Source: Planctomycetota bacterium (GTDB lineage Bacteria > Planctomycetota > SZUA-567 > H5-PLA8). Taken from it: a stretch of 64,000 nt of DNA. Positions 2 through 55,009 of the stretch are shown here, piece after piece. The stretch covers positions 43,316 to 107,315 of the forward strand of contig JBBRPR010000002.1 of assembly GCA_038227875.1 (NCBI GenBank). The letters are read 5' to 3'. The translations under genes and the position numbers were made by a program. The notes beneath the pieces were generated by a model. That model did no database searches. It was not told where the DNA came from and saw nothing but the letters and a program-made list of their open reading frames with translations. Within the stretch, counting starts at the first letter, position 1. The number at the start of each line of letters is the position of its first letter.

Positions 2-1384
2 ACCGCCCGCAAGAACATGGAGCTGAAACTCAATCACGATGTCTTCCACGATTCGCTCACCGATCTCCCCAACCGCGCGCTGTTCATGGAGCGGTTGAAG
101 CATGCCATGACCCGCATCGGCCGCCGCGATGGCGTGCATATCGCGGTGCTCTTCATCGATCTGGACCGCTTCAAAATCGTCAACGACAGCCTCGGGCACA
201 GTGCCGGCGACCAGTTGCTGGTCGAATTTGCGCGCCGCGTCGCGGCCTGTCTGCGCCCCAGCGACACACTCGCGCGGCTGGGCGGCGATGAATTCTGCGT
301 GATCATCGAAGACATCGTCAACATCGACGAAGCCAATCTCGTCGCCAGCCGGATTCAGGAACAGTTCAAGCAGCCGATCACGGTAAAAGACAACGACCTG
401 TTCGTCACCGCCAGCATGGGCATCGCGCTGAGCACGCCCAACTACCACAGTTGGGAGGATCTGCTGCGCGACGCCGATATCGCCATGTATCGCGCCAAGA
501 CCAAGGGGCATTCGTGTTTGGAATCGTTCAACGAGGACATGCACGCGCATGCCAAAACCGTTCTGAATCTCGAAAGCGGCCTTCATCACGCCGTCCGGTC
601 CATCTCGGCCACCGCCAGTGGCCTGCACCGCGCCGTCGAGTCGAAGGAATTCCAGCTCGACTACCAGCCCATCGTTTCGCTGCCGACCGGCCGCATCACC
701 GGTTTTGAAGCGCTGATCCGTTGGCAGCATCCCAAGCGCGGCCGCGTGCTGCCCAACCTCTTCATTCCCATCGCCGAAGAGACGGAATTGATCGTTCCCA
801 TTACGTTCTGGGTCCTGCGCGAAGCCTGCACGCAGATGCTCAACTGGCAGAAGAAGTACCCCAAGCTTGCCACGGTAAGCATGAACGTGAACCTCTCGGC
901 AAAGTCCTTTGGGCAGGCCGATCTCATTCCGCAGATCGCCGCCATCCTTCAGGAGACCGGTCTGAAAGGCTCGAGCTTAAAGATCGAAATCACCGAACGG
1001 GTGATCATGAAAAGCTCCAACGCCACCGCCAACGTGCTCTCGGATCTGAAGAGCCTCGGCGTACAACTGTGCCTCGACGATTTCGGGACGGGCTATTCGT
1101 CGCTGAGCTACCTGCACAGTTTCCCGCTGGACGCCGTGAAGATCGACCGCTCGTTTGTCAGTAAATTGAGCAACGAAGAGAGCAAGACCAAAGGCATCAT
1201 GCGTGCCATCATGATCCTCGCGCGCAATTTGAAGATGTCAGTCGTCGCCGAAGGCGTTGAAACGATTGAACAGCTCCGCGAACTGCGTAAACTCAACTGC
1301 GATTACGCCCAGGGCTATTTGTTCTCCCGGCCCGTCGAAGCCCCTGTGATTGAGAAGCTGATCGCGACGAACGCGGTCTGGTAG
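2..1384 (+). CDS. GGDEF-EAL diguanylate cyclase/phosphodiesterase (N-terminally truncated by window edge)
   Basis: Frame is open to the window start (TARKNME, typical PAS-GGDEF junction). [10 protein letters not shown], intact GGDEF, EAL (GFEALIRW), [10 protein letters not shown] and VVAEGVE motifs. Confidence 0.95.
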
Positions 1385-1391
1385 GTTCTCG

Positions 1392-2972
1392 TCATTTCGG
1401 CCAGGCATTCAAGCGGATCACGCGAATGTGCTTGGTCGTCCACGAGACCCCGCTCGCGTCGCCGATGCTCTTTGCAAAAATGTGGAGCACCAGACCGTTG
1501 ATCGTGTCGGCACCGGATCCGGGTTGGCTGTACGAAATTTTTTCGTCCATCGTGTACTGCGCCAGTTTGCCCGTGCGGTCGACGATGAAGCGGTTCACGG
1601 CGTTGTTGGATGTCGTGGTCTCCGTTTTTTCCGTCCCCGGACCTCCCGAAGCCAAATGCTCCATCGGACCGTTCGGCACCCGCCGGGCCTGGGTGAACAG
1701 GGCCAGCTGATGGCCGTGGCCATCCAATAGTTCGATGCCAACTTCGTACGCGCCGGTGAAACTCATTTCGTTATCCAGATCGATTTCGACCGGTCGCTCA
1801 TCCAGTGCGATCACTTTTGAAAACAGTCCGACTTCCGGAAACAGCCGCTCGTGCGTGAGCAGCCGGGTGGCCTGGTTGCCACCGGACATCATGTTGAGCT
1901 TCGACTGATCGATCTGCCAGATCGTGTAGCCCAGCTTCGGCGGCGGATAAACGCGCGCCCAGAATTTATCCAGCTCCGGCTTTTCGAACCGGTCTTCGTA
2001 AATCAACGCTAACTCGCGCACCGGCGGCGTCGCTTCAGCCGGAGTTTGCGGCGAAGCGATCGGCATCGCGACGGATTGCGTTTGCAGCGGCGAGGCAGCC
2101 GGCGCATTTGCGGACGTATTCACGGCCGTGTACGCCAGCAGTCCCAGGATCACCACCAGCGCGGCCGCGCCCGATGCGATCAGCGCCTTCGAAAGCGGCG
2201 CGGGGCCCTTCGGCACCAGCCGCATGCTCTGAGCGGCGTGGTTTGGCAACTTCAATAATTTTTCGTGGCAGCGCGCCAGCAGCGGGCCGTCTTCCGTGGC
2301 CAGTTTCATCGCCAGTAGCACCGCCCACGACGCGGGCAGCGCGGAGTATCCGGCCTTGCGCAGACCATTGCGCAAATAGTCTAGCGCTTCGTTGATGCGC
2401 GTCGAGACGGTCACCTGGCTGCAATGAAGTTCCGCGGCGATCTCCGTCTGCGGCAGGTTGGCGGAAAAATAGAGCGCGATGGGGACGCGCAGTTTTTCGG
2501 GCAGTTCGCGCACCAGCTCGGCGACCTTCTGACGCGCTTCTTCCATCTGCGCGGAATCCTCGGCGGCGGTCCCGCCCGCTCCGCCGGTTCGTTCGCTCTC
2601 TGTCTGCATGCGTTGAATCTCGCGCCTTTCACTCCTGCGTTTGGTATTGATGTGAATGGCCTTGCGTGCGACGACCGTGGCAAGCCAGCCGGCGATGCTG
2701 CTTTTGCGCAGGCTTTTCTTGCGCACGGCGCGGAAGAAACTCAAAAAAGCTTCCTGCACGATCTCTTCCGCGTCGTTGGGTCCGGCCATGTGCCGCGCCA
2801 GCCCGAACACCCGGCGCTCATGCCGTTCGACCAGCGTGCGCCACGCCTCCAGAAACGCCGGGTCGTCACACGACTCCGCCGCGGAGAGAATGTGGATCAA
2901 CTCCGCATCGCCGCGTCCGGTTTCGGCCGCGACCGAAGCTTCGGTCAGGTGTGTGTCGCCCATTTCAGTCAT
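1392..2972 (-). CDS. ECF sigma-70 factor with C-terminal TM segment and extracytoplasmic domain
   Basis: Region 2 (LVERHERRVF..AEEIVQEAFL..WLATV) and region 4 (LPEKLRVPIALYF..QTEIAAEL..TVSTRI), then hydrophobic ALIASGAAALVVILGLLAY and a beta-rich tail. Start uncertain (2972 or 2963). Confidence 0.85.
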   Translation of the reverse strand: MTEMGDTHLTEASVAAETGRGDAELIHILSAAESCDDPAFLEAWRTLVERHERRVFGLARHMAGPNDAEEIVQEAFLSFFRAVRKKSLRKSSIAGWLATVVARKAIHINTKRRSERREIQRMQTESERTGGAGGTAAEDSAQMEEARQKVAELVRELPEKLRVPIALYFSANLPQTEIAAELHCSQVTVSTRINEALDYLRNGLRKAGYSALPASWAVLLAMKLATEDGPLLARCHEKLLKLPNHAAQSMRLVPKGPAPLSKALIASGAAALVVILGLLAYTAVNTSANAPAASPLQTQSVAMPIASPQTPAEATPPVRELALIYEDRFEKPELDKFWARVYPPPKLGYTIWQIDQSKLNMMSGGNQATRLLTHERLFPEVGLFSKVIALDERPVEIDLDNEMSFTGAYEVGIELLDGHGHQLALFTQARRVPNGPMEHLASGGPGTEKTETTTSNNAVNRFIVDRTGKLAQYTMDEKISYSQPGSGADTINGLVLHIFAKSIGDASGVSWTTKHIRVIRLNAWPK

Positions 2973-3116
2973 CCGTTTACTGGAGCACGTTCGCGCCAAC
3001 AAAAGGGTAGTGTGGACTTCTCTTCTCGTTAACGGAGGAATTTGGAAGAATTCGAAGATTTAGTTATCTGAGCCTTAAACCGGCAGAAACTTCCCGCGCA
3101 TGTTGGGTTTTAACCA

Positions 3117-3134: not shown

Positions 3135-3342
3135 AGGTAGCCTTGCCTACCCCCAAGCCCCGGGGCCTGAGGGTACCTCCCAAATTGTTTTCAGATTCCG
3201 TTGGTAAAGAAAATTCTCATCCGGATAGGTAGGTGAGAAACGGCGGACGCGCCAAGTCAGGCGGATCAAAGTGGGGCAAGTCATGCTAAGATTCCCAGCT
3301 GAGACGCAAACCCGGCGCGCGCCGCCTATACAGGCACAGGGC

Positions 3343-4791
3343 ATGGCCATCGAACTCAGCGACGACGAACTGCTCGTGAGTATCGCGCAGGAACGCAGCC
3401 AGGAAGCGTTTGCGGAGCTGCACCGCCGTTACGCGCACCTCTGTTTCAACGTGGCGCTCAACACCACCGGAAACCGTTCGCTGGCCGAAGAGGCGCTCCA
3501 GGAAGCGCTCCTGCAAATCTGGCTTTCGGCCGGGTCGTATCAACCCGGCAACGCCCGCGGCTGGATTCTCCGGATCGTCGCGCACGAAAGTCTGGATCTG
3601 GTTCAGACGCAGCAAAAAGGAAAAAAACGGATGGAGGCGGAGATCTCCCGAAACGAATCGAGCGGCTCTGCGGGCATCGCGGAACACGCCGAACACGGCG
3701 AGTTGCTGAATGCGCTGCGCCGGGTCCTGCACGACCTTCCCGCGCGCGACCGCCAACTGGTCGCGCTTCATTTTGGAGCGGGGCTGACGCAGCAGGAAAT
3801 CAGCGCCGCGCTGGTGATGCCGCAGCAGACGATCTCGTTCAAAATCAAGAAGGTCCTCGACGATCTGCGCGGCCGGCTGGCGGTTGCCGGCTTTGCCGCC
3901 ACAGCCCCGCTGCTCTCCGCCGAATGGATGAGCGAAGCGATCTGCAGCGGCGTGCCCGAACCGCAGGGTGTGGGCGTCCAGGTGCTCTCGAAACTCGCCT
4001 CAAAGAGTCGCGCCATGCGCAGCGCGCCGAAGCTGGCCAAAGCGGCGAAGGTAGCCGGCATCAGCAAAGGTCTGCTGGTGGGCGGAGCGGTCCTGATGGC
4101 CGGCGCGCTGGCGACAGCCGCATGGTTTGCGACCGCGAAGTCCGCTCCGCAGACGCCGGCTGTCCTCGTGCCGATAGTCCCAGCGAAGGATGAAATTTCG
4201 CAACGCTGGTCGTTCGACGACGGCATCCCGACGGACCTTTCGCCGGCCGACGCAGCGACCCGGAGCAAATGGCAGTGGAAAAAGACGGAGGTCGGCGGCG
4301 AGTTGGTTTCGCCGGTGCCGGTGGTGCTGAATCTGCCGATCACCGCGCCCAAGCAACCGTTCGCCATCACCGCGCACTTTGATATCCAGGAAAGTCCGCA
4401 CAACGTCTTCAGTGGTGCGTGCTGGAGGGCTGACCACAAGGCTGTGCCCATGCACGAATGGTCGATGACCAAAGACTACACCAAAAAGGAGCGACCCAAG
4501 ACGGTCGTGCACACCGTTTACTTTTTTGACCGGACGATCGTCGACATCGTCGATGGTTCTCTGTCAAAAGTGTCGCAAGCCGAGCAGCCGTATCCGACCG
4601 ACAAAGTCAGCCTGATCTTCATGAAGTGCGGTCTGTTGGACCTGGAGTACCACACGCTGTCGGAAGCGGAACGCGCGACGCTGGACGCCAAGAAACTGAT
4701 CGACCAGGCCGTTGCCGGTGGCTACGACCAGGCGGATATCCCGGCGCTCGAACTGCGTTCGGACTGGCTGGACGAGAAGAAGAGCAAGTAA
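3343..4791 (+). CDS. ECF sigma-70 factor with C-terminal TM segment and extracytoplasmic domain
   Basis: SDDELL..QEAFAELHRRY, AEEALQEALLQIW, GWILRI; region 4 LPARDRQLVALHF..QQEISAAL; TM GLLVGGAVLMAGALATAAWFA. Start set at ATG 3343. Confidence 0.87.
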   Translation: MAIELSDDELLVSIAQERSQEAFAELHRRYAHLCFNVALNTTGNRSLAEEALQEALLQIWLSAGSYQPGNARGWILRIVAHESLDLVQTQQKGKKRMEAEISRNESSGSAGIAEHAEHGELLNALRRVLHDLPARDRQLVALHFGAGLTQQEISAALVMPQQTISFKIKKVLDDLRGRLAVAGFAATAPLLSAEWMSEAICSGVPEPQGVGVQVLSKLASKSRAMRSAPKLAKAAKVAGISKGLLVGGAVLMAGALATAAWFATAKSAPQTPAVLVPIVPAKDEISQRWSFDDGIPTDLSPADAATRSKWQWKKTEVGGELVSPVPVVLNLPITAPKQPFAITAHFDIQESPHNVFSGACWRADHKAVPMHEWSMTKDYTKKERPKTVVHTVYFFDRTIVDIVDGSLSKVSQAEQPYPTDKVSLIFMKCGLLDLEYHTLSEAERATLDAKKLIDQAVAGGYDQADIPALELRSDWLDEKKSK

Positions 4792-4887
4792 ACGCAACTT
4801 CAGTGGCTGAATTTTCCGAGCCGTTTTCGGCGCGGTAGGTGGCGCATTGTCGCTGCACAAAGGAAGGTCTGCTTGCTTTTAACCATC

Positions 4888-4933
4888 AGGAAAATTTTCC
4901 TTAAGGTTCCGACCGTGTTGACCATGGTCAACA
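4888..4933. promoter_or_regulatory. Two perfect palindromes upstream of the N-acyl synthase operon: AGGAAAATTTTCCT (4888-4901) and TGTTGACCATGGTCAACA (4916-4933)
   Basis: Read directly, about 107-150 bp upstream of ATG 5040. Confidence 0.6.
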
Positions 4934-5039
4934 GGGTTCCCGCTCGCTCAACTTTTTCTAAAGATTCTGCCTTTAGCCGTTCGCGAACCCAGCACTTCCA
5001 TCTAGAAGCGCACCGAGAGTCGAACCACGGAGGCCAGCC

Positions 5040-5894
5040 ATGCTTTACGCGGAAGACGAGAAGATTTTGGGGTTGAACCGAGTCCGTCGCCCATCGGCGG
5101 TGTCGCAGGCCCTGCGGGCTATTCGGGACGACGTCAGCATTGGCCGCCAATCCTGGCTGGCCGACGGTTACCGCATTCTCGTCGCCGCCGACCGCGAAAC
5201 GCGCGAACGCGCGTACACGCTGGCGCACCGCGTCTACCAGCGTGCCGGTTACGTTTCCGAAAGTAGCGAGGAACTCTGTGTCTCGCCGCACGATGCCTCC
5301 GAACACACGCTGACCTTGCTGGCGCTGGATCCCGACGGCAACGATTGCGCGACGATCTCGCTGGTCTTTGATTCGGCCATCCACGGACTGCCCTGCGATG
5401 AAATCTACCGCGCCGAAGCCGACGTTCTGCGCGCCGGCGGCTGCCGCCTGGCCGAAGTCACGCGCCTGGCCATCGACGAATCCTGCGTAGGCGCCAAGCA
5501 CCTGCTGCTCCACCTCTTCAACCAATGTTACATCTTCGCGCGCATCGTCCGCGGGCACACCGATCTGCTGGTCGAAGTCAATCCGCGGCACGTCGCCTAC
5601 TACAAGCGCCTGCTGCGCTTCTCGGTCGCCGGTCCGGAACGTCCGTGCTCACGCGTTCAAAATGCGCCGGCGCTGCTGCTGCGCTTAAACTTCGACGAGA
5701 TCGAAGCAGCCGTAAAAGGCACCGGCTGCACCGGCGGCCGTGGCGCTGACGGCAAACGGTTGCATGCCTATCCGTACTCCAAACCGGAAGAAGACGCCGT
5801 CGCGCGCTTCCTGGCCCGACAGCACCGCCCCATGTCCGCCGAAGACGCGCGCTACTTCCGCCTGCAGAGTCTGTCCAAGGAGTCTCGCCAGTGA
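5040..5894 (+). CDS. FeeM-like long-chain N-acyl amino acid synthase (GNAT/LuxI-related fold)
   Basis: AYTLAHRVYQRAGY, ATISLVFDS..GLPCDEIY, LAEVTRLAID, LLVEVNPRHVAYYKRLLRF, RVQNAPALLLRL. GGAGG RBS at 5029-5033. Confidence 0.85.
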   Translation: MLYAEDEKILGLNRVRRPSAVSQALRAIRDDVSIGRQSWLADGYRILVAADRETRERAYTLAHRVYQRAGYVSESSEELCVSPHDASEHTLTLLALDPDGNDCATISLVFDSAIHGLPCDEIYRAEADVLRAGGCRLAEVTRLAIDESCVGAKHLLLHLFNQCYIFARIVRGHTDLLVEVNPRHVAYYKRLLRFSVAGPERPCSRVQNAPALLLRLNFDEIEAAVKGTGCTGGRGADGKRLHAYPYSKPEEDAVARFLARQHRPMSAEDARYFRLQSLSKESRQ

Positions 5895-7543
5895 GCATCG
5901 AACTCTGCGTCGCTCCGGCCTGCGAACTGGACACCGCGATTGCCGCCTGGCGTGAACTGCTGGGAGATTCCGGCGTCACGGCTGGAAGCACGTACCGCGC
6001 CAACACTGCGGGGATAGAGCGGGAGATTCCCGCCGTGGTGATTCCGCGCAGCGCCGCGGATGTGGCCGACATCGTCCGCATTGCCGCGGGGCACCGCGTG
6101 CCGCTCTATCCGATCAGCACGGGAAAAAATTGGGGCTATGGCTGCGCCAATCCGGTCACCGACGGCTGCGCGCTCGTGGACCTTTCGCGTCTGAATAAAA
6201 TTCTCAACTTCGATGCCGAACTGGGCCTGCTCACCGTCCAGCCCGGCGTCACGCAGCGCGTGCTCAAAGAATTCCTCGACGCCAACAAGCTCCCGTTCCT
6301 GGTGCCGACCACCGGAGCCGGACCCGATGCCAGTCTGCTCGGCAACGCGATGGAACGCGGCTACGGTTTGACGCCGCACGCCGATCACTTCGGCGCCGTG
6401 ATGTCGCTAGAAGCGGTGCTGCCCAACGGCGAACTCTACCGCTCCGCGCTGACGGAAGCCGGCGGCGCGTCCGTCGACAATGCGTTCAAGTGGGGTTTGG
6501 GACCATACCTCGATGGCCTCTTCACGCAGGGCAATTTCGGCATCGTCACGCAGATTACGATTGCGTTGGCGCCCGTGCCCGAGCGCATCGAAGCGTTTTT
6601 CTTCTCCGTCGAAAAGTCTGAGCAGCTCGAAGAAGCCGTCACCGCCGTGCGCCGGATTTTGAATACCGTCGGCGGCGTCACCGGCTCGCTGAACCTGATG
6701 AACGCGCGTCGGGTGCTCTCGATGGTTGAAGCCTATCCCGCCTCGCGCGTGCCCTGCGGCGGTGTGATGCCCGATCCACTCGTGCGCGAACTTGCCGCGC
6801 GGAATCAGGTCATGGCGTGGACCGGCGTCGGGGCGCTGTACGGCACGAAGCAAGTTGTGCGCGCCGCGCGGTCGGAAATCCGCCGCGCGCTCCGGCCGTT
6901 CGCTCGCAACGTGATCTTTCTGACGCAGAGCGAAGTCCGCACGGCGCAGAAAGTCGTGAGCTGGATTCCGCTGCTGCGCGATTCGCGCGTGGCGAAAATG
7001 CTGCAGCGCATCGACGGATTTCTCGACAACGCGTCCGGCCAGCCCAGCGAGATCGCACTGCCGCTGGCGTATTGGAAATCGGGAACGCTGCCCCAAAAAG
7101 GCACGCCGCTCAATCCTGCTCGCGACGGTTGCGGACTGCTCTGGTACGCGCCGCTGATTCCGATGAAAGCCGAGCGCGTCCGCGCGTACGTGGAACTGGT
7201 CACACGCATCTGCGTTGAACACGGGATGGAACCGCTGATCACGCTGACCAGTCTTTCCAACCGCTGCTTCGACAGCACCGTGCCGCTGCTTTACAACAAA
7301 GACAACCCCGACGAATCCGCGCGCGCCCACGCCTGCTTTGACGCGCTCTTCCGCGCCGGCCAGGCCGAAGGCTTCCTGCCCTACCGGATGGGCGTGCAGT
7401 CGATGCATCACGTCGTCGACGCGGATAAGCCGTGCTGGAAACTGAGCGCAGCGATCAAGCATGCGATCGATCCCGATAACGTCATCGCACCGGGGAGATA
7501 CGCCGAAGTGAGAGCGGGTAGAAGGCAGGGGCAGGGGCAGTAG
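5891..7543 (+). CDS. FAD-linked oxidoreductase, p-cresol methylhydroxylase/vanillyl-alcohol oxidase family (FeeG-like)
   Basis: PISTGKNWGYG, VDLSRLNKI, VQPGVTQ, GNAMERGYG, FKWGLGPYLDGLFTQGNFGIVT, C-terminal IKHAIDPDNVIAPGRY. GTGA overlap with the upstream gene. Confidence 0.9.
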   Translation: MSIELCVAPACELDTAIAAWRELLGDSGVTAGSTYRANTAGIEREIPAVVIPRSAADVADIVRIAAGHRVPLYPISTGKNWGYGCANPVTDGCALVDLSRLNKILNFDAELGLLTVQPGVTQRVLKEFLDANKLPFLVPTTGAGPDASLLGNAMERGYGLTPHADHFGAVMSLEAVLPNGELYRSALTEAGGASVDNAFKWGLGPYLDGLFTQGNFGIVTQITIALAPVPERIEAFFFSVEKSEQLEEAVTAVRRILNTVGGVTGSLNLMNARRVLSMVEAYPASRVPCGGVMPDPLVRELAARNQVMAWTGVGALYGTKQVVRAARSEIRRALRPFARNVIFLTQSEVRTAQKVVSWIPLLRDSRVAKMLQRIDGFLDNASGQPSEIALPLAYWKSGTLPQKGTPLNPARDGCGLLWYAPLIPMKAERVRAYVELVTRICVEHGMEPLITLTSLSNRCFDSTVPLLYNKDNPDESARAHACFDALFRAGQAEGFLPYRMGVQSMHHVVDADKPCWKLSAAIKHAIDPDNVIAPGRYAEVRAGRRQGQGQ

Positions 7544-7705
7544 GCGGCAGGAGTTGTGTCGCGAAATTCCTACCTTATATTGATGCTGTTCCACCTTATT
7601 AAGAAAGAAATTGACCGCGCGGAGGAACAAGGTGATAGTCACTTGTTCAGGACCGCACATGCGCGGGCAGTTGGCCTCATCTGATCCAAACCTGGATCTG
7701 CTCCG

Positions 7706-8890
7706 ATGGCACAAAATCCACAACACATTACCGCTAAAATTCCGGCCGAAGGCAGTCAGGCGGAATTGGCTGCGGCACATGCGCACGATCTGGCCAGCGT
7801 CACGGCGACGGTTGTCGCGATCAAGCGGATGCTCGCGCCGAACGCCACTGTCGATCTCGATGCGCTCACCGAACTCTCCACGACTTTCGATACGATCGGC
7901 AAAGACACCAGCCGGCGCCTGAATAAATGCGTGTCGTATTTGAGCGTCAACAATCTCGCGTCGGCCGTGGAGCTTTCTGAGGCGGCGCCGGCGCTCCTGG
8001 ATGTACTGCGCCAAGTCGCCTCAGTGGATGCGAAAGCCTGGAACGCGCTGCTCGCCAAACACAAACGCGTGCCGCCGCCGCCGCTCAATTCGCGGCAAAT
8101 GAAACAACTGGAGGACGCGTACGCGCAGCCGGAAGCGCTGGCGCTGCTGCGCAAAGCGTGTGATGCGCCGCAGCAGGCCAAGGCCAGCACGCTGGAGCGC
8201 ATCGCCTCGGCGCGGCGGATGCGCCTGCTGGACCGCGGCAATCCCGATTGGATCACGCGGCTGTCAGCGCTGGAAGTGCGGCGGCAGAATGAAATTCTCG
8301 CCATCGTTTCCGCGAAGACCGCGCCGACGCACTCACTGCAGGATGCCGGCGAATTGGTTGCGGAACTCGCGCAGCCGCAATGGCTGGTTCTGCCGCCGCA
8401 GAAACTGATCGAGGCGGCGAAACAGTTTCAGAATCAAATCCGCCAGCAGGAACTGGAGGAGATGCTCGATGGTGTGCTCGATAAAATTCTCGAAGCGCGC
8501 GAGCAGCATGATTATGTCGGGATGGAGAACATCCTCCGCGACGTCAAGTCGCTGAGCGACGACGCTGGGATTCCGCCCGGGCAGCTTGAGGCGATTCAGG
8601 AAGCGCGGGACTGGCTGGCGACGCAGAACGAGAAATTTCATCAGCAGATCAACGAGCTCGAACTGCTGCTCGACGATCTCGCGCCGTCGCGGCAAGTTCG
8701 ATATGTCCTGCGTGAAATTGAAGAGACCGGACGGGCGCTGCCGCCGATCATGTTTCAGCGCACGACGTCGTACCTCGCGCAGCACGACATCGGCGAGCGG
8801 CGGCGCTCACGCCAGCTGCGTGTCGTTTTGATTCTGGTGGCGCTGGCGGCCGCTGCTGCGGCAGTTTGGTATGTGATCAACAAGGCTTAA
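7706..8890 (+). CDS. Hypothetical alpha-helical protein with a single C-terminal membrane anchor
   Basis: 394-aa ORF, helical/coiled-coil composition, RRRSRQLR followed by VVLILVALAAAAAAVWYVI. First gene of the ExbB-like operon. Confidence 0.8.
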   Translation: MAQNPQHITAKIPAEGSQAELAAAHAHDLASVTATVVAIKRMLAPNATVDLDALTELSTTFDTIGKDTSRRLNKCVSYLSVNNLASAVELSEAAPALLDVLRQVASVDAKAWNALLAKHKRVPPPPLNSRQMKQLEDAYAQPEALALLRKACDAPQQAKASTLERIASARRMRLLDRGNPDWITRLSALEVRRQNEILAIVSAKTAPTHSLQDAGELVAELAQPQWLVLPPQKLIEAAKQFQNQIRQQELEEMLDGVLDKILEAREQHDYVGMENILRDVKSLSDDAGIPPGQLEAIQEARDWLATQNEKFHQQINELELLLDDLAPSRQVRYVLREIEETGRALPPIMFQRTTSYLAQHDIGERRRSRQLRVVLILVALAAAAAAVWYVINKA

Positions 8891-17436: not shown

Positions 17437-17967
17437 ATGAAATTACCGCGTGCCAAGAAGACGCCCGTACCGCCACCGCCTGAGATCCCCGTCGATGAGA
17501 AACTCTGCACGAACTGCGGCAAGTGCTGCTACAAGAAGTTGCTCGTCGGCCGCATCGTGTATATCACGCCGTTTCCGTGCGAATTTCTCGACACCAAAAC
17601 GAATCTCTGCACGATCTACGACCGCCGCAAGGAACTCAATCCGCTCTGCCTGTCCGTGCCTGAAGGGATGACGGTCAGCGCGTTTCCAACCGACTGCCCG
17701 TACGTTCCGATCCATGCGCCGAAAAATTACAAGCCGGCGTACGAGAAGGATTGGAGCGAGGAGTGGGACGACTTCGACGCGTTTGCCGACGACATGGAAG
17801 CGTCTCCGGAAATGCGCGCCATAGTTCATAAGCGCGGGCCGCACGCCAAGCCGATGTACACCGAAGCTGTTGTGCCGTCGCTGGTGGAACTGGCGCGGCC
17901 GCCGGTGGAAGTGGTGAACGCGAAAGCCGATGATAATGGAGCTCGCAGCGGGGCGCAAAGCCCATGA
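17437..17967 (+). CDS. YcgN/CxxCxxCC-type cysteine-cluster protein
   Basis: LCTNCGKCCYKK..PCEFLD..CTIYDRR..CL..FPTDCPY. Confidence 0.85.
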   Translation: MKLPRAKKTPVPPPPEIPVDEKLCTNCGKCCYKKLLVGRIVYITPFPCEFLDTKTNLCTIYDRRKELNPLCLSVPEGMTVSAFPTDCPYVPIHAPKNYKPAYEKDWSEEWDDFDAFADDMEASPEMRAIVHKRGPHAKPMYTEAVVPSLVELARPPVEVVNAKADDNGARSGAQSP

Positions 17968-19541
17968 GCGAAACTGAGGAAACTCGGCGGGTTTCGCGGC
18001 GCTACATTCCCGGCAAGACCGGGCGCCTGGTCGATATTCGCACCGATGCTTCCATTCAGGAACGACTCAAAGCCTACGAAGAAGAAGCCGGAAAGCTCGC
18101 CCTGCTGCTGCAGATGTCGACGATCCTGGCCTCCGAAAAAGAATTGGATGTGCTGCTGACGGAGATCGTCGGCCACACCACCAGCATGATGGGCTGCGAA
18201 CGGTCCAGCGTGCTGCTGGCCGACCACGGCACCAACGAACTCTACGCGCTCGTCGCCGAAGGTCTCGACTGCAAGGAACTCCGTTTCAGCATGGACAAGG
18301 GCATCGCCGGCTACGTGGCGCGGACCGGCGAGTCGCTGAATATTCCCGATGCGTACGCCGATGCGCGTTTCAATCAGGCCGTCGACAAGGCCACGGGCTT
18401 CCGCACGGTTTCGATTCTCTGCATGCCGCTGCTCGACCGAGCCGGCCGGACGCTGGGCGTGATCCAGTGTCTCAACAACAAAAACCCGTCCGGCAAGATC
18501 GTGCCCTTCGATCAATCGGAAGAGGTGTTTCTTTCCGCGGTCGCGGGCCAGGCCTCGATTCTGCTCGAGAATAGTTCGCTCAACCGGCGCATGGACAAGC
18601 TCTTTGAAGCGTTCGTGATCGCGACCAGCCGATCGATCGACGATCGCGATCCGTGCACCAGCGGCCATTCGCGGCGCGTCACGGCGTATTCGCTGAACCT
18701 CGCGCGCGCGGTCCACGAATGCAACGTGCCGCCGTTCGATCAGCATGTGTACACGCGCGAACGCATGCGCCAGTTGCGCTACGCCTGCCTGCTCCACGAC
18801 GCTGGGAAGATCGGCGTACGCGAGAACGTGCTCTGCAAGGCGACGAAGATCAGCGTCGCAGCGCTGGAAGCGGTGCGCGAGCGCTTCAAATACATGCGCG
18901 AAAAATCGCGCGCCGACGGGCTGGCCAAGTGCCTGGCGGAGAAGCTCGATCCGGAGAAGTACCTCGCCGAGCACCACGAACCGCACCTGTTAAAGCTCAG
19001 CGACGCGCTGGCGTTGATTGAAGCGGTCAACGTGGCCACGTTCACATCGCCCGAGCAGGCGGACAAGTTGCGCGTGCTGGAAGCGCTGACGTGGATCACG
19101 CCGGCGGAGTGCGAGAATCTTTCGGTCATCCGCGGCAACCTGACGGCGACCGAATGGGAGGACATGCGCAGCCACGTGACGAAAAGTTACCGCATGCTGC
19201 TGCCGATTCCCTGGCCGGAGGAAATGCGCGATCTGCCGGAAGTCGCCTACGCGCATCACGAAAAGTACGACGGCAGCGGCTACCCCCGGCGCTTGAAAGC
19301 CGGCGAGATTCCGTTCGACGGACACATCATGTGTGTGGCGGACATCTACGACGCGCTGACGGCGTCCGACCGCCCGTACAAAAAAGCGATCCCGCACGAA
19401 CGCGCGAAAAAAATCCTGATGGAAGAGGAAGCGGCGAAAGGCAAGATTCTGCCCGAGCTGGTCGAACTGTTCTTCGCGCAGAAGTGCTATGAGATTTCGC
19501 CGGATAAATTCGGGAGCGGGTTGTTTGAGGCTGTGCAATAA
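17964..19541 (+). CDS. GAF + HD-GYP cyclic-dinucleotide phosphodiesterase
   Basis: GAF (GIAGYVARTGESLNIPDAY..RFN..DKATGFRT), TSGHSRRV, LLHDAGKIG, HHEKYDGSGYP, ADIYDALT..RPYK. Confidence 0.93.
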   Translation: MSETEETRRVSRRYIPGKTGRLVDIRTDASIQERLKAYEEEAGKLALLLQMSTILASEKELDVLLTEIVGHTTSMMGCERSSVLLADHGTNELYALVAEGLDCKELRFSMDKGIAGYVARTGESLNIPDAYADARFNQAVDKATGFRTVSILCMPLLDRAGRTLGVIQCLNNKNPSGKIVPFDQSEEVFLSAVAGQASILLENSSLNRRMDKLFEAFVIATSRSIDDRDPCTSGHSRRVTAYSLNLARAVHECNVPPFDQHVYTRERMRQLRYACLLHDAGKIGVRENVLCKATKISVAALEAVRERFKYMREKSRADGLAKCLAEKLDPEKYLAEHHEPHLLKLSDALALIEAVNVATFTSPEQADKLRVLEALTWITPAECENLSVIRGNLTATEWEDMRSHVTKSYRMLLPIPWPEEMRDLPEVAYAHHEKYDGSGYPRRLKAGEIPFDGHIMCVADIYDALTASDRPYKKAIPHERAKKILMEEEAAKGKILPELVELFFAQKCYEISPDKFGSGLFEAVQ

Positions 19542-53219: not shown

Positions 53220-54056
53220 CTAAGAGCCGCTCTTCCGCTGGCATTTCGGACAGAACCACGTGCCGCGCTGACCCATCACGATGCGTTTGATCGACGTCTT
53301 ACAGCGCGAGCACGGTTGGCCTTCGCGGCCGTACGCGAGAAGTTCGCGCTGGAACCAGCCGGATTCGCCTTCGGCGTTGCGAAAGTTTTCGATGCTCGAT
53401 CCGCCGGCTTCGATCGCGGAGCGGAGCACGGTCTGGATCGCCGCGTGGAGTTCCCGCGCGCGCTCAGGTTTCACGCGCGAGGCTATGGCGAGCGGATGGA
53501 GTTTCGCCGCGTAGAGTGCTTCGTCGGCATAGATGTTGCCGACGCCGGCGAGGAACTCCTGGTTGAGCAGCAACGCTTTCAAGCGGCCGCCGCGGGCGCG
53601 CAGACGCGCGGCGAAATCGTCGGCGGAGATCTCGAGCGGCTCGGGGCCGAGCTTGGCGATCGATTTCATCGCGTCGAGCACGGCGCTTTTTCCGGTCCAC
53701 ACACGGCCGAACGTGCGGATGTCGCGGAAGAGCAGTAATTCGTTGCCGCCGTCGAGTCCAAAGCGTACGCGCGCGTACGCGTCGTTGAGTTCGTGCGGCG
53801 CCTTTGCGGGAATGACGCCCAGCCATCCGGTCATCCGAAGATGGACGGTCATGCCGAAATCCGATTCCAGCAGGACGCGAATGTATTTGCCGCGGCGCTG
53901 GACGTCGATCACGCGCTGGTTGATCAGGCACTGCGGCTTGGCCGGCGATTCGGAGACCGTGGGCTTGTGGAGGACTTCGACGCCCACGATCTTTCGGCCG
54001 ACGAGGGACGTTTTCAAACCGCGCACGACGGTTTCGACTTCGGGGAGTTCTGGCAT
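53220..54056 (-). CDS. mutM: Formamidopyrimidine-DNA glycosylase
   Basis: MPELPEVETV, RRGKY, HLRMTG, DIRTFG, GVGNIYADE, zinc finger CSRC..CPKCQ. Confidence 0.97.
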   Translation of the reverse strand: MPELPEVETVVRGLKTSLVGRKIVGVEVLHKPTVSESPAKPQCLINQRVIDVQRRGKYIRVLLESDFGMTVHLRMTGWLGVIPAKAPHELNDAYARVRFGLDGGNELLLFRDIRTFGRVWTGKSAVLDAMKSIAKLGPEPLEISADDFAARLRARGGRLKALLLNQEFLAGVGNIYADEALYAAKLHPLAIASRVKPERARELHAAIQTVLRSAIEAGGSSIENFRNAEGESGWFQRELLAYGREGQPCSRCKTSIKRIVMGQRGTWFCPKCQRKSGS

Positions 54057-54067
54057 TGGCGATGATT

Positions 54068-55009
54068 CTATTTCACGAGTAGGACGCGCTCGACGAACAC
54101 GGCCGCAAAGAGCAGCAGACTGACACAGCCGTTGATGGTGAAGAAAGCCACGTTGACGCGGCTGAGGTCGTTGGGCCGGACGATCCAATGTTCGTACAGG
54201 AGTAAACCGGCGACAAGGACCACGCTGCCAAAATACCACGCGCCCATCGCCGCGTAAATTCCGCATGCAGCCAGGAGCGCGACGGCCAGCACATGCAGCA
54301 CGGCCGACAGGATCAGCGAGTTGCGGATACCGATTTCCTTGGGCATGGAGTGCAAACGCGGATCGGCCAGATCGACGGCGTAATCCTGGCAGGCGTAGAT
54401 CAAGTCGAAGCCGCTCACCCAGAGCAGCACGGTGGCGCTGAGGAGAATCGGAAACAGTTCCAGCGACAATCCCCAGCGCTGACCCAAACCGGCCAGCGGC
54501 GCGAGATCGCCGCGGACGGCCAGATGCGCGCCCAGCGGCGCCAGACCCAGCGCGAGCCCCAGCCAGAAATGACACAGGCAGGTGAAGCGCTTGGCCAGCG
54601 AATAGCCGAGCAGAATCGCGAGCACCGGCAGCGCCAGCACGAAGCAAATGTGATTGAATTGCGCCGCAAACAAACAGAAGAGCGCGCCGCTGATCAAGGT
54701 GAATGCCGCCATGAACGGCATCGAGACGGCGCCGGTGACCGTCGGCCGCGTGCGCGTGCGCGGGTTTTCGGCGTCGATGTCGCGGTCCATGAAGCGGTTG
54801 AAGGCCATCGCGGCACTGCGCGCGGAGATCATGCAGAGGACGATCAGCACCAGCGTGCGCGTGCCGGGCAGGCCCTGCGCGGCAACGATCATCGCCAGCA
54901 GCGCGAACGGCAGGGCGAAGATGGAATGTGCGAATTTAATCGAGTCGAGCAACAACGACAGCGACTTGAAGCTGAACGCGGCCGGATGAGCTGGGACTGT
55001 GGCGGGCAT
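54068..55009 (-). CDS. UbiA-family prenyltransferase (MqnP-like)
   Basis: IKFAHSIFALPFA, ARSAAMAFNRFMDRDIDAENPRT, GFDLIYACQD, NVAFFTING. Confidence 0.9.
   Translation of the reverse strand: MPATVPAHPAAFSFKSLSLLLDSIKFAHSIFALPFALLAMIVAAQGLPGTRTLVLIVLCMISARSAAMAFNRFMDRDIDAENPRTRTRPTVTGAVSMPFMAAFTLISGALFCLFAAQFNHICFVLALPVLAILLGYSLAKRFTCLCHFWLGLALGLAPLGAHLAVRGDLAPLAGLGQRWGLSLELFPILLSATVLLWVSGFDLIYACQDYAVDLADPRLHSMPKEIGIRNSLILSAVLHVLAVALLAACGIYAAMGAWYFGSVVLVAGLLLYEHWIVRPNDLSRVNVAFFTINGCVSLLLFAAVFVERVLLVK

Follow-up and report, generated by a model that had tools for sequence, protein, structure and literature searches.

What do two overlapping genes make when the first encodes a synthase of N-acyl amino acids (NAS) and the second a phenol-oxidizing flavoprotein? 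The question arises from a 64,000-nucleotide stretch of contig JBBRPR010000002.1 of a Planctomycetota bacterium (the whole of this stretch is called the window below), in which a gene for a FeeM-type NAS of 284 amino acids (gene 1, 5040..5894, + strand) is followed by a gene for a flavoprotein of 550 amino acids (gene 2, 5891..7543, + strand) belonging to the 4-phenol oxidoreductase group within the family named after vanillyl-alcohol oxidase and p-cresol methylhydroxylase (VAO/PCMH). A preliminary description had proposed that the two enzymes convert tyrosine into an N-acyl-tyrosine and then into an enamide. On balance, we favor the view, suggested by the sequences, that the pair forms a translationally coupled two-gene operon for an oxidized N-acyl-tyrosine lipid ending in an enamide. 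That both enzymes belong to one pathway acting on an acylated tyrosine-type phenol is quite likely; the decarboxylated enamide itself is put forward as the end product only tentatively.

Layout of the pair and families of its products

In the list of open reading frames (ORFs) of the window, gene 1 starts with ATG and gene 2 with GTG. A GGAGG ribosome-binding site (5029..5033, + strand) was read in the sequence 6 bases 5' of the ATG, and an AAGGAG site (5877..5882, + strand) is present within gene 1, 8 bases 5' of the GTG. The two genes share the four bases GTGA (5891..5894, + strand), the GTG of gene 2 occupying 5891-5893 and the TGA of gene 1 occupying 5892-5894. This overlap and the internal AAGGAG together give the layout of a translationally coupled pair, as the preliminary description had held.

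The product of gene 1 matches the Pfam family FeeM (PF21926) with an E-value of 5.2e-44 and a score of 150.3 bits (cut-off 27), residues 58-217 covering positions 2-158 of the 158 in the model, and it matches the solved FeeM structure 2G0B with an E-value of 3.9e-9, so that its designation as a FeeM-type synthase stands. The GNAT-like core (residues 58-217) is flanked by an N-terminal extension of about 45 amino acids and a C-terminal one of about 65, both of which are conserved in the relatives. The catalytic base proposed for FeeM is Glu95 (PMC4897644, section 7). In the alignment with 2G0B, Glu139 of gene 1 falls opposite the Glu of the LAEV motif, which a count along the chain (offset 2) identifies as Glu95; Glu139 does not vary among 23 relatives. 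The possibility that gene 1 might encode a LuxI-type acyl-homoserine-lactone (AHL) synthase was rejected: no Autoind_synth match was obtained, FeeM being the sole Pfam family found at E-values up to 1. With the model TIGR03694 of the exosortase-associated acyltransferases, gene 1 scored only 13 bits (cut-off 111.95). An exhaustive search yielded 2924 representative relatives of gene 1 at E<=1e-3 and 125 at E<=1e-30, and those bearing names belong to the Planctomycetota.

The product of gene 2 matches the Pfam family FAD_binding_4 (85.2 bits), its domain binding flavin adenine dinucleotide (FAD) extending over residues 48-184. The top 33 matches in the PDB are either 4-phenol oxidoreductases or entries bearing the generic name 'FAD-binding oxidoreductase' (E-values of 3e-74 to 7e-36), and the matches beyond these are glycolate and lactate oxidases, at 1e-14 and weaker; 7PBG is presumably 4-ethylphenol oxidase. 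The best solved relatives are nsVAO of Novosphingobium (9FGE/9FFK; E 2.8e-74 for 9FGE), PCMH (1DII/1WVE; 4e-68), VAD of Marinicaulis (8S7x; about 1e-60), eugenol oxidase (about 1e-46) and VAO (about 5e-45), the names of 9FGE, 9FFK and 8S7x being those used in PMC7617285. All of them are 4-phenol oxidoreductases, in agreement with the earlier assignment to the p-cresol methylhydroxylase/VAO family.

The residues expected to bind the phenolate are conserved in gene 2: Tyr83, within NWGYG, and the Tyr498-Arg499 of PYR are matched by the GYG and YR of nsVAO, PCMH and VAD, and are invariant in 18 relatives as well as in all three of the outgroup enzymes described below. The phenolate-binding residues of VAO are Tyr108 and Tyr503, as named in the title of a reference, and presumably Arg504. 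At the position of the FAD-linking His of the oxidases, gene 2 has Leu416, which is invariant in the 18 relatives; the FAD-linking Tyr384 of PCMH lies just beyond the aligned stretch, where no Tyr is evident in gene 2. The enzyme nsVAO likewise lacks the His, and its FAD is reported to be bound non-covalently, the covalent link being described as not strictly defining for the 4-phenol group (PMC7617285). Gene 2 probably binds its FAD non-covalently. The loop at the flavin N5, P139-T-T-G-A-G-P145, is present throughout the clade to which gene 2 belongs. The residue pair facing N5 is either T140/T141 or G142/A143, depending on the alignment, and since the two alignments give different pairs, the attempt to read oxidase or dehydrogenase activity from this loop was dropped. 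Compared with PCMH, gene 2 is longer by about 30 residues in the stretch from position 343 to 410. For both window proteins, the relatives of highest similarity come from metagenome contigs and are 70-95% identical to them. For two of the three closest metagenome flavoproteins, the longest contig is equal in size to that of a synthase homologue (50173 and 3896 bases), which is no more than a hint as to their gene order.

Recurrence of the pair and its genomic contexts

Contigs from one genome per species were searched with an alignment of the gene 2 flavoprotein and 17 relatives, which gave 608 relatives. The best 80 of these were kept, yielding a survey of 79 loci with flavoproteins 38-57% identical to that of the window and up to 8 kb of flanking DNA on each side. 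The ORFs of these loci were clustered all-against-all, and profiles built from two synthase-like clusters picked out 64 candidate ORFs, 60 of which score at or above the Pfam gathering threshold of FeeM or Acetyltransf_5; the other four are two fragments and weak matches at the loci L068 and L071. A Pfam-confirmed NAS gene was thus found within the fetched flanks at 48 of the 79 flavoprotein loci. It is the immediate neighbor of the flavoprotein gene in 29 loci: in 25 of them the two genes share a strand and overlap or are at most 350 bp apart, and in the other four they diverge, with no more than 263 bp between them. About seven lineages show this immediate adjacency independently: Marinobacter, a Stellaceae/alphaproteobacterial group, two groups of Planctomycetota, a metagenome-assembled genome (MAG) of Burkholderiales, Acidovorax/Paracidovorax, and Myxococcota. 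The pair occurs in Pseudomonadota, Planctomycetota, Myxococcota and Thermodesulfobacteriota, and in a genome of Candidatus Eisenbacteria the two genes lie within 1.5 kb of each other. The pairing of synthase and flavoprotein is not due to chance, and the synteny elsewhere on which the preliminary description had made its reading depend was found.

In one Planctomycetota MAG the two enzymes form a single protein of 835 amino acids carrying both Pfam domains (L041:7962-10469, + strand; the DNA contains no N). Its residues 1-541 are 48% identical to the flavoprotein of the window, and its FeeM part (568-827) is 31% identical to the window synthase. At a paralogous locus of the same MAG (L014:7929-10572), the same order is found with two separate genes and a gap of 23 bp. 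The recurrence of the pair and this natural fusion indicate that the two enzymes act together, which bears out the cooperation assumed in the preliminary description. The fusion is the only one joining flavoprotein and FeeM that was seen in the searches made: a word-index search for longer synthase relatives returned two proteins, neither with a flavoprotein domain, and Pfam scans of 10 of the longest proteins (at least 391 amino acids) among the best 150 synthase representatives gave five glycosyltransferase-FeeM fusions, two radical-SAM-FeeM fusions, one tandem FeeM, one protein with a YgaP-like membrane segment and one plain FeeM. The fusion gene is followed by two genes for fatty-acid desaturases. 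A divergent gene for a 747-amino-acid sigma-54 activator is present upstream of each of the two loci of this MAG.

The genes accompanying the pair differ from locus to locus. Bare overlapping two-gene cassettes resembling that of the window occur at L026, L062 and L065. In a member of the Planctomycetaceae (L017:6055-11842), the genes for FeeM, a patatin-like phospholipase, the flavoprotein and a methyltransferase form an uninterrupted series, with an EryCIII-type glycosyltransferase gene on the opposite strand. In Pseudomonas monteilii (L078:5496-14244), the series comprises MarR, FeeM, methyltransferase, flavoprotein, HEAT-repeat, tryptophan-halogenase-like and amidase genes. The same core of FeeM, methyltransferase, flavoprotein, halogenase and amidase genes is carried by the plasmid pMPPM04 of Methylorubrum populi (L080:3011-10277), where FeeM is preceded by a DNA alkylation repair gene, an NAD(P)H oxidoreductase gene is added and the HEAT-repeat gene is missing. 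From its gene content, the cluster in these last two strains would seem to lead to a tyrosine-derived product that is both halogenated and methylated, and the acyl group of which may be removed later. The tailoring genes in the Planctomycetaceae, Pseudomonas and Methylorubrum loci are those expected for tyrosine-derived lipids. Glycosyltransferase-FeeM fusions (P0243, P0281, P0310, P0317 and P0362) were recorded as well, and glycosylation of the products, as in hyellamide, may be frequent.

In Proteobacteria, the flavoprotein clade is part of exopolysaccharide/exosortase loci. Members of four protein clusters whose four scanned representatives carry the PEP-CTERM motif are present at 44 of the 79 loci, and the NAS partner is of the TIGR03694 type (cluster 4) at 30 of the 79, all three of the representatives scanned scoring above the TIGR03694 cut-off. 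The genes recurring at loci of this type encode Poly_export and Wzz/GNVR proteins, a Bac_transf sugar transferase, a large TPR protein, and MacB/FtsX and MMPL proteins. In 21 loci (23 profile matches), the flavoprotein gene adjoins one for a hydrophobic protein of about 229 amino acids without any match in Pfam or NCBIfam, the latter gene often overlapping the former or lying within 60 bp upstream of it (for example at L028:5701-6390 on the - strand, and L044:7298-7960 and L030:7160-7894 on the + strand). The window lacks a counterpart of this protein, which may serve as a membrane partner where the locus is of the exosortase type.

Two further arrangements were noted among the surveyed loci. 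In Omnitrophota, two flavoprotein paralogues of the clade are encoded on the same strand with no synthase within the flanks (L055:541-4611 and L064:4765-7961), directly adjacent to each other in L064 and separated by one gene in L055. In a betaproteobacterial MAG (L046:13562-14714, - strand), the FeeM-type synthase near the flavoprotein is broken over three overlapping ORFs, and is either a frameshifted pseudogene or the result of an assembly error.

Proposed pathway and rival explanations

In the pathway which we propose, the synthase would move a long acyl chain, probably from housekeeping acyl-acyl carrier protein (acyl-ACP), to the amino group of tyrosine, with Glu139 acting as the base, as membership of the FeeM family suggests. 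The flavoprotein would then hold the phenolate of the N-acyl-tyrosine by means of Tyr83, Tyr498 and Arg499 and transfer the benzylic hydride to FAD, giving a p-quinone methide; the family, the conserved residues and the linkage of the genes all point to this second step. The last step is the least certain: the quinone methide would lose CO2 and yield an N-acyl-4-hydroxystyrylamine, an enamide, as reported for FeeG and CndG. These two are described as VAO/PCMH enzymes of the 4-phenol group which carry out the oxidative decarboxylation of N-substituted tyrosines (PMC11350588, section 5.2.1; PMC8762209, section 7), the benzylic hydride being removed and the resulting quinone methide driving decarboxylation to the styryl-enamide (PMC11350588; PMC8762209; PMC11959600). 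Like decarboxylases of this type, gene 2 is a member of the 4-phenol group encoded together with a predicted N-acyl-tyrosine synthase. Decarboxylation seems the most likely outcome because a free carboxylate would lie beside the quinone methide and no acidic residue is present at the flavin N5 site.

The flavoprotein might, on the other hand, be an ordinary catabolic p-cresol/4-alkylphenol methylhydroxylase (PchF-like) standing next to the synthase gene by coincidence. PCMH is indeed among its best solved matches (E 4e-68), and the automatic annotation in one source names many of the homologues '4-cresol dehydrogenase (hydroxylating)'. A tree of 91 sequences was built with a quick IQ-TREE search under LG+G4, comprising 88 flavoproteins of the clade and three outgroups, namely two Novosphingobium enzymes flanked by cytochrome c genes and one oxidase-type Rhodococcus enzyme with the oxidase Asp-Leu pair and the FAD-linking His. 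The 88 clade members are split from the outgroups with full support in the SH-like approximate likelihood ratio test (SH-aLRT 100; branch 0.67+0.67); with long branches and three outgroups only, this split is firm, unlike the branching order within the clade. Three metagenome proteins of about 70% identity form a group with the flavoprotein of the window (SH-aLRT 100), which is about 30% identical to catabolic enzymes as against 38-57% to those of the survey loci. A tblastn search of plasmids with the flavoprotein returned 39 records, the catabolic ones among which (from Novosphingobium, Sphingobium and Rhodococcus) do not exceed 32% identity over the length. At fifteen positions (W81, Q122, A153, E155, A175, Y183, N271, R274, P360, Y394, P409, P465, P497, R536 and Y537), a residue that is at least 95% conserved within the clade is replaced in each of the three outgroups; N271, R274, Y394, R536 and Y537 are candidates for contacts with the carboxylate or amide. 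At both catabolic loci (Novosphingobium L081 and L082), the flavoprotein gene has an ORF with a CxxCH motif no more than 22 bp away and a gene for an aldehyde or alcohol dehydrogenase downstream, which is the textbook catabolic context; a CxxCH ORF within 1.5 kb was found at only two of the 79 clade loci, 683 and 1194 bp away. As regards the window, 54 ORFs of at least 90 amino acids were scanned against Pfam, and none belongs to the ACP, fatty-acid synthesis, ThiF, nitroreductase, PEP-CTERM, exosortase or cytochrome c families; nor does the window contain any small CxxCH ORF within 1.5 kb of gene 2. The pathway genes are therefore just two, as first described, and neither a cytochrome c nor an aldehyde dehydrogenase gene adjoins them. 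The split in the tree and the lack of a cytochrome c gene also bear on the earlier concern that the flavoprotein might cluster with catabolic PchF: it does not group with the cytochrome c-linked catabolic enzymes of the tree. In view also of the 4-base overlap with the synthase gene, the recurring pair and the natural fusion, the idea of a catabolic enzyme is already largely refuted, and its probability is very slight.

The main rival to decarboxylation keeps the same pathway but gives it another end: the quinone methide could lose its alpha-proton, yielding an N-acyl-2,3-dehydrotyrosine of the stieleriacine, thalassotalic acid or kyonggic acid type, or add water, yielding a beta-hydroxy or beta-keto N-acyl-tyrosine. 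Stieleria planctomycetes make N-acyl dehydrotyrosines (PMC12479983; PMC7293339), and VAO-type enzymes are described as giving rearranged or hydrated products of quinone methides (PMC7617285), although the comparative genomics of PMC12479983 (section 6) assigns the known desaturation to a TyzC-like nitroreductase and a ThiF-family protein. Neither of these was found among the 54 ORFs scanned. In addition, the acidic N5 residue of the oxidases is replaced by Thr or Gly in gene 2, whichever alignment is adopted, which leaves no obvious base for deprotonation or for the activation of water, a role as base which Asp170 presumably plays in VAO; and the free alpha-carboxylate beside the quinone methide would be chemically poised to leave. 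We regard a dehydrotyrosine or hydroxylated end as unlikely. That the pair cooperates on a substrate other than N-acyl-L-tyrosine is decidedly more doubtful still. The synthase might acylate tyramine or a modified or D-tyrosine, or the flavoprotein might oxidize some other para-substituted phenol, for instance a tyrosine within a peptide or protein, which at the proteobacterial loci might have to do with PEP-CTERM proteins. The specificity of the synthase is not readable from its sequence, the partner in Proteobacteria is of the TIGR03694 type and 44 of the 79 loci have clusters of the PEP-CTERM type, in which the role of the NAS is unsolved, and 31 of the 79 loci have no NAS nearby. Tyrosine is, however, the sole standard amino acid with a para-substituted phenol of the kind that such flavoproteins bind, FeeM-family enzymes are reported to have repeatedly yielded N-acyl-tyrosines on expression (PMC4897644; PMC8762209), no PEP-CTERM or exosortase gene was found in the scan of the window, and the natural fusion argues for consecutive steps on one small molecule.

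Several points weigh against the enamide pathway itself. The amino-acid specificity of gene 1 is deduced solely from its partner flavoprotein. Within the fetched flanks, no NAS was found at 31 of the 79 loci, including three of three in Methylomonas and five of five in Omnitrophota, so that an adjacent NAS is not in every case required by the flavoprotein; a single Marinobacter/Halospina lineage accounts for 14 of the 25 same-strand neighbors; and all these counts apply to the 79 loci, which are the most similar of the 608. The N5 loop of gene 2 fits neither the oxidase pair (Asp/Glu with Leu) nor the usual dehydrogenase pair (Ala/Thr with Pro/Ile) given in section 16 of PMC7617285, and a Thr at this site is reported to have kept VAD a dehydrogenase (PMC7617285, section 21). 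The flavoprotein may thus, to judge from this loop, react poorly with O2 and need a separate electron acceptor. HyeB, a reported homologue of FeeG, is only 32% identical to it (PMC11959600), which makes the FeeG-like functional group a loose one, and the planctomycete N-acyl-tyrosines described in PMC12479983, the stieleriacines, are dehydro-tyrosines and not enamides.

Surroundings of the pair and relation to known systems

The preliminary description had pointed to signaling genes and palindromes around the pair, all of which are present as stated. Based on Pfam matches, a GGDEF-EAL protein cut by the start of the window (17-1384, + strand) is followed by two divergent genes for sigma factors of the extracytoplasmic function (ECF) type, of 536 (1392-3002, - strand) and 506 amino acids (3271-4791, + strand). 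In both of these, the sigma regions are confined to roughly the first 210 residues, and no Pfam match was obtained for the long C-terminal extension that makes up the remainder. The 248-base gap upstream of gene 1 contains two neighboring palindromes, each with no spacer: I1 (4881..4908; 14+14 nucleotides, 86% complementary), a candidate operator located 132-159 bases upstream of the first ATG, and I2 (4912..4937; 13+13 nucleotides, 92% complementary), a candidate site for a dimeric regulator. The 18-base core of I2, TGTTGACCATGGTCAACA, occurs once in the window, 0.01 matches being expected at up to 3 mismatches. A scan of positions 4700-7800 for promoters and terminators gave nothing above the shuffled expectation (a weak promoter-like match at 7611-7639 and a terminator-like one within gene 2). 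The gaps between the genes around the pair are shorter than 270 bp.

The other genes around the pair encode a 394-amino-acid downstream ORF without an assigned family, MotA/ExbB-like, bPH_2 and DoxX proteins, and a large protein with LamG domains. None of the flanking genes of the window clusters with those of the 79 related loci, which have the pair alone in common with it. ECF sigma factors are, moreover, very numerous in planctomycete genomes. Since no flank is shared and these factors are so abundant, the argument from a signaling neighborhood is a weak one. A GAF and HD/HD_5 (HD-GYP-like) protein is encoded at 17964-19541 (+ strand) and, together with the GGDEF-EAL protein (17-1384), makes two likely cyclic di-GMP turnover proteins within 20 kb. 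Elsewhere in the window, the longest ORF of an Fpg/Nei-type DNA glycosylase (53220-54647, - strand) begins about 197 residues ahead of the glycosylase domain; this may be an N-terminal extension, but a start codon called too early is the more likely explanation.

The closest parallel is the fee cluster from soil environmental DNA (Brady, Chao and Clardy, 2002, as described in PMC8762209, PMC11350588 and PMC11959600), where a FeeM-family NAS is likewise encoded with a VAO/PCMH flavoprotein of the 4-phenol group, FeeG, and the same enamide chemistry is proposed. The synthase of the window is distant from FeeM (E 3.9e-9 to 2G0B) and has the extra N- and C-terminal segments. The FeeG-like CndG of the chondrochloren pathway of Chondromyces crocatus is reported to have been shown to make a styryl-enamide from an N-acylated tyrosine, and HyeB of the hyellamide cluster of Hyella patelloides is proposed to do so (PMC11350588; PMC11959600), but the substrate of CndG is a product of polyketide synthase and nonribosomal peptide synthetase, and the partner of HyeB is an SGNH-type acyltransferase and not a FeeM-type synthase. 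The likeness of FeeG, CndG and HyeB to gene 2 is one of description only, in terms of family and gene linkage. With the dehydrogenase branch (PchF, eugenol hydroxylase, nsVAO and VAD), gene 2 has in common the fold family and the phenolate-binding Tyr, Tyr and Arg, but it has no cytochrome c partner gene or catabolic neighbors and belongs to a separate clade.

In the loci for stieleriacine, thalassotalic acid, kyonggic acid and tyrazolone, a NAS also precedes an oxidation of the tyrosine side chain, and such loci are known in Planctomycetota, but the oxidation is carried out by a TyzC-like nitroreductase and a ThiF partner and leads to dehydrotyrosines (PMC12479983). The window locus was rejected as a cluster of the stieleriacine/tyrazolone type, neither ThiF nor nitroreductase being present among its 54 scanned ORFs. 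The PEP-CTERM/exosortase-associated NAS of the TIGR03694 type partner the same flavoprotein clade at 30 of the 79 loci, beside genes for PEP-CTERM proteins and polysaccharide export; the window synthase differs from them in its score of 13 bits (cut-off 111.95), and genes for PEP-CTERM proteins, exosortase or polysaccharide export are absent from the window.

Ever since the fee cluster was published, the literature has contained a FeeM-type synthase paired with a FeeG-type flavoprotein, and the operon of the window is a compact, minimal form of a known lipid pathway and does not represent a system of a new kind. As to the separate, widespread NAS-tied flavoprotein clade, including its members in PEP-CTERM/exosortase loci, no published account was found in a search that did not extend to Craig et al. 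(2011), and the gap is not established; the words FAD, oxidoreductase, flavoprotein and oxidase are all missing from Haft (2006). Craig, Cherry and Brady reportedly dealt in 2011 with the NAS associated with PEP-CTERM/exosortase systems. It is conceivable, if rather improbable, that the pair is the core of a phylum-spanning pathway, the product of which would be the missing link between NAS and the PEP-CTERM/exosortase exopolysaccharide systems, acting, for instance, as a cue, either diffusible or bound to the membrane, for the assembly of the biofilm matrix; the module of the window would then be one that was cut loose, came under its own operator and makes a non-AHL lipid signal.

The survey defines a distinct and widespread clade of phenol-oxidizing flavoproteins, labeled '4-cresol dehydrogenase' by the automatic annotation of one source, which travels with NAS and not with cytochrome c subunits. 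That it is present in PEP-CTERM/exosortase loci offers a concrete starting point, open to testing, for learning why NAS are tied to these systems. If the proposed pathway is true, two genes would suffice to convert tyrosine and housekeeping acyl-ACP into a styryl-enamide lipid, and the pair would be a useful minimal biosynthetic module.

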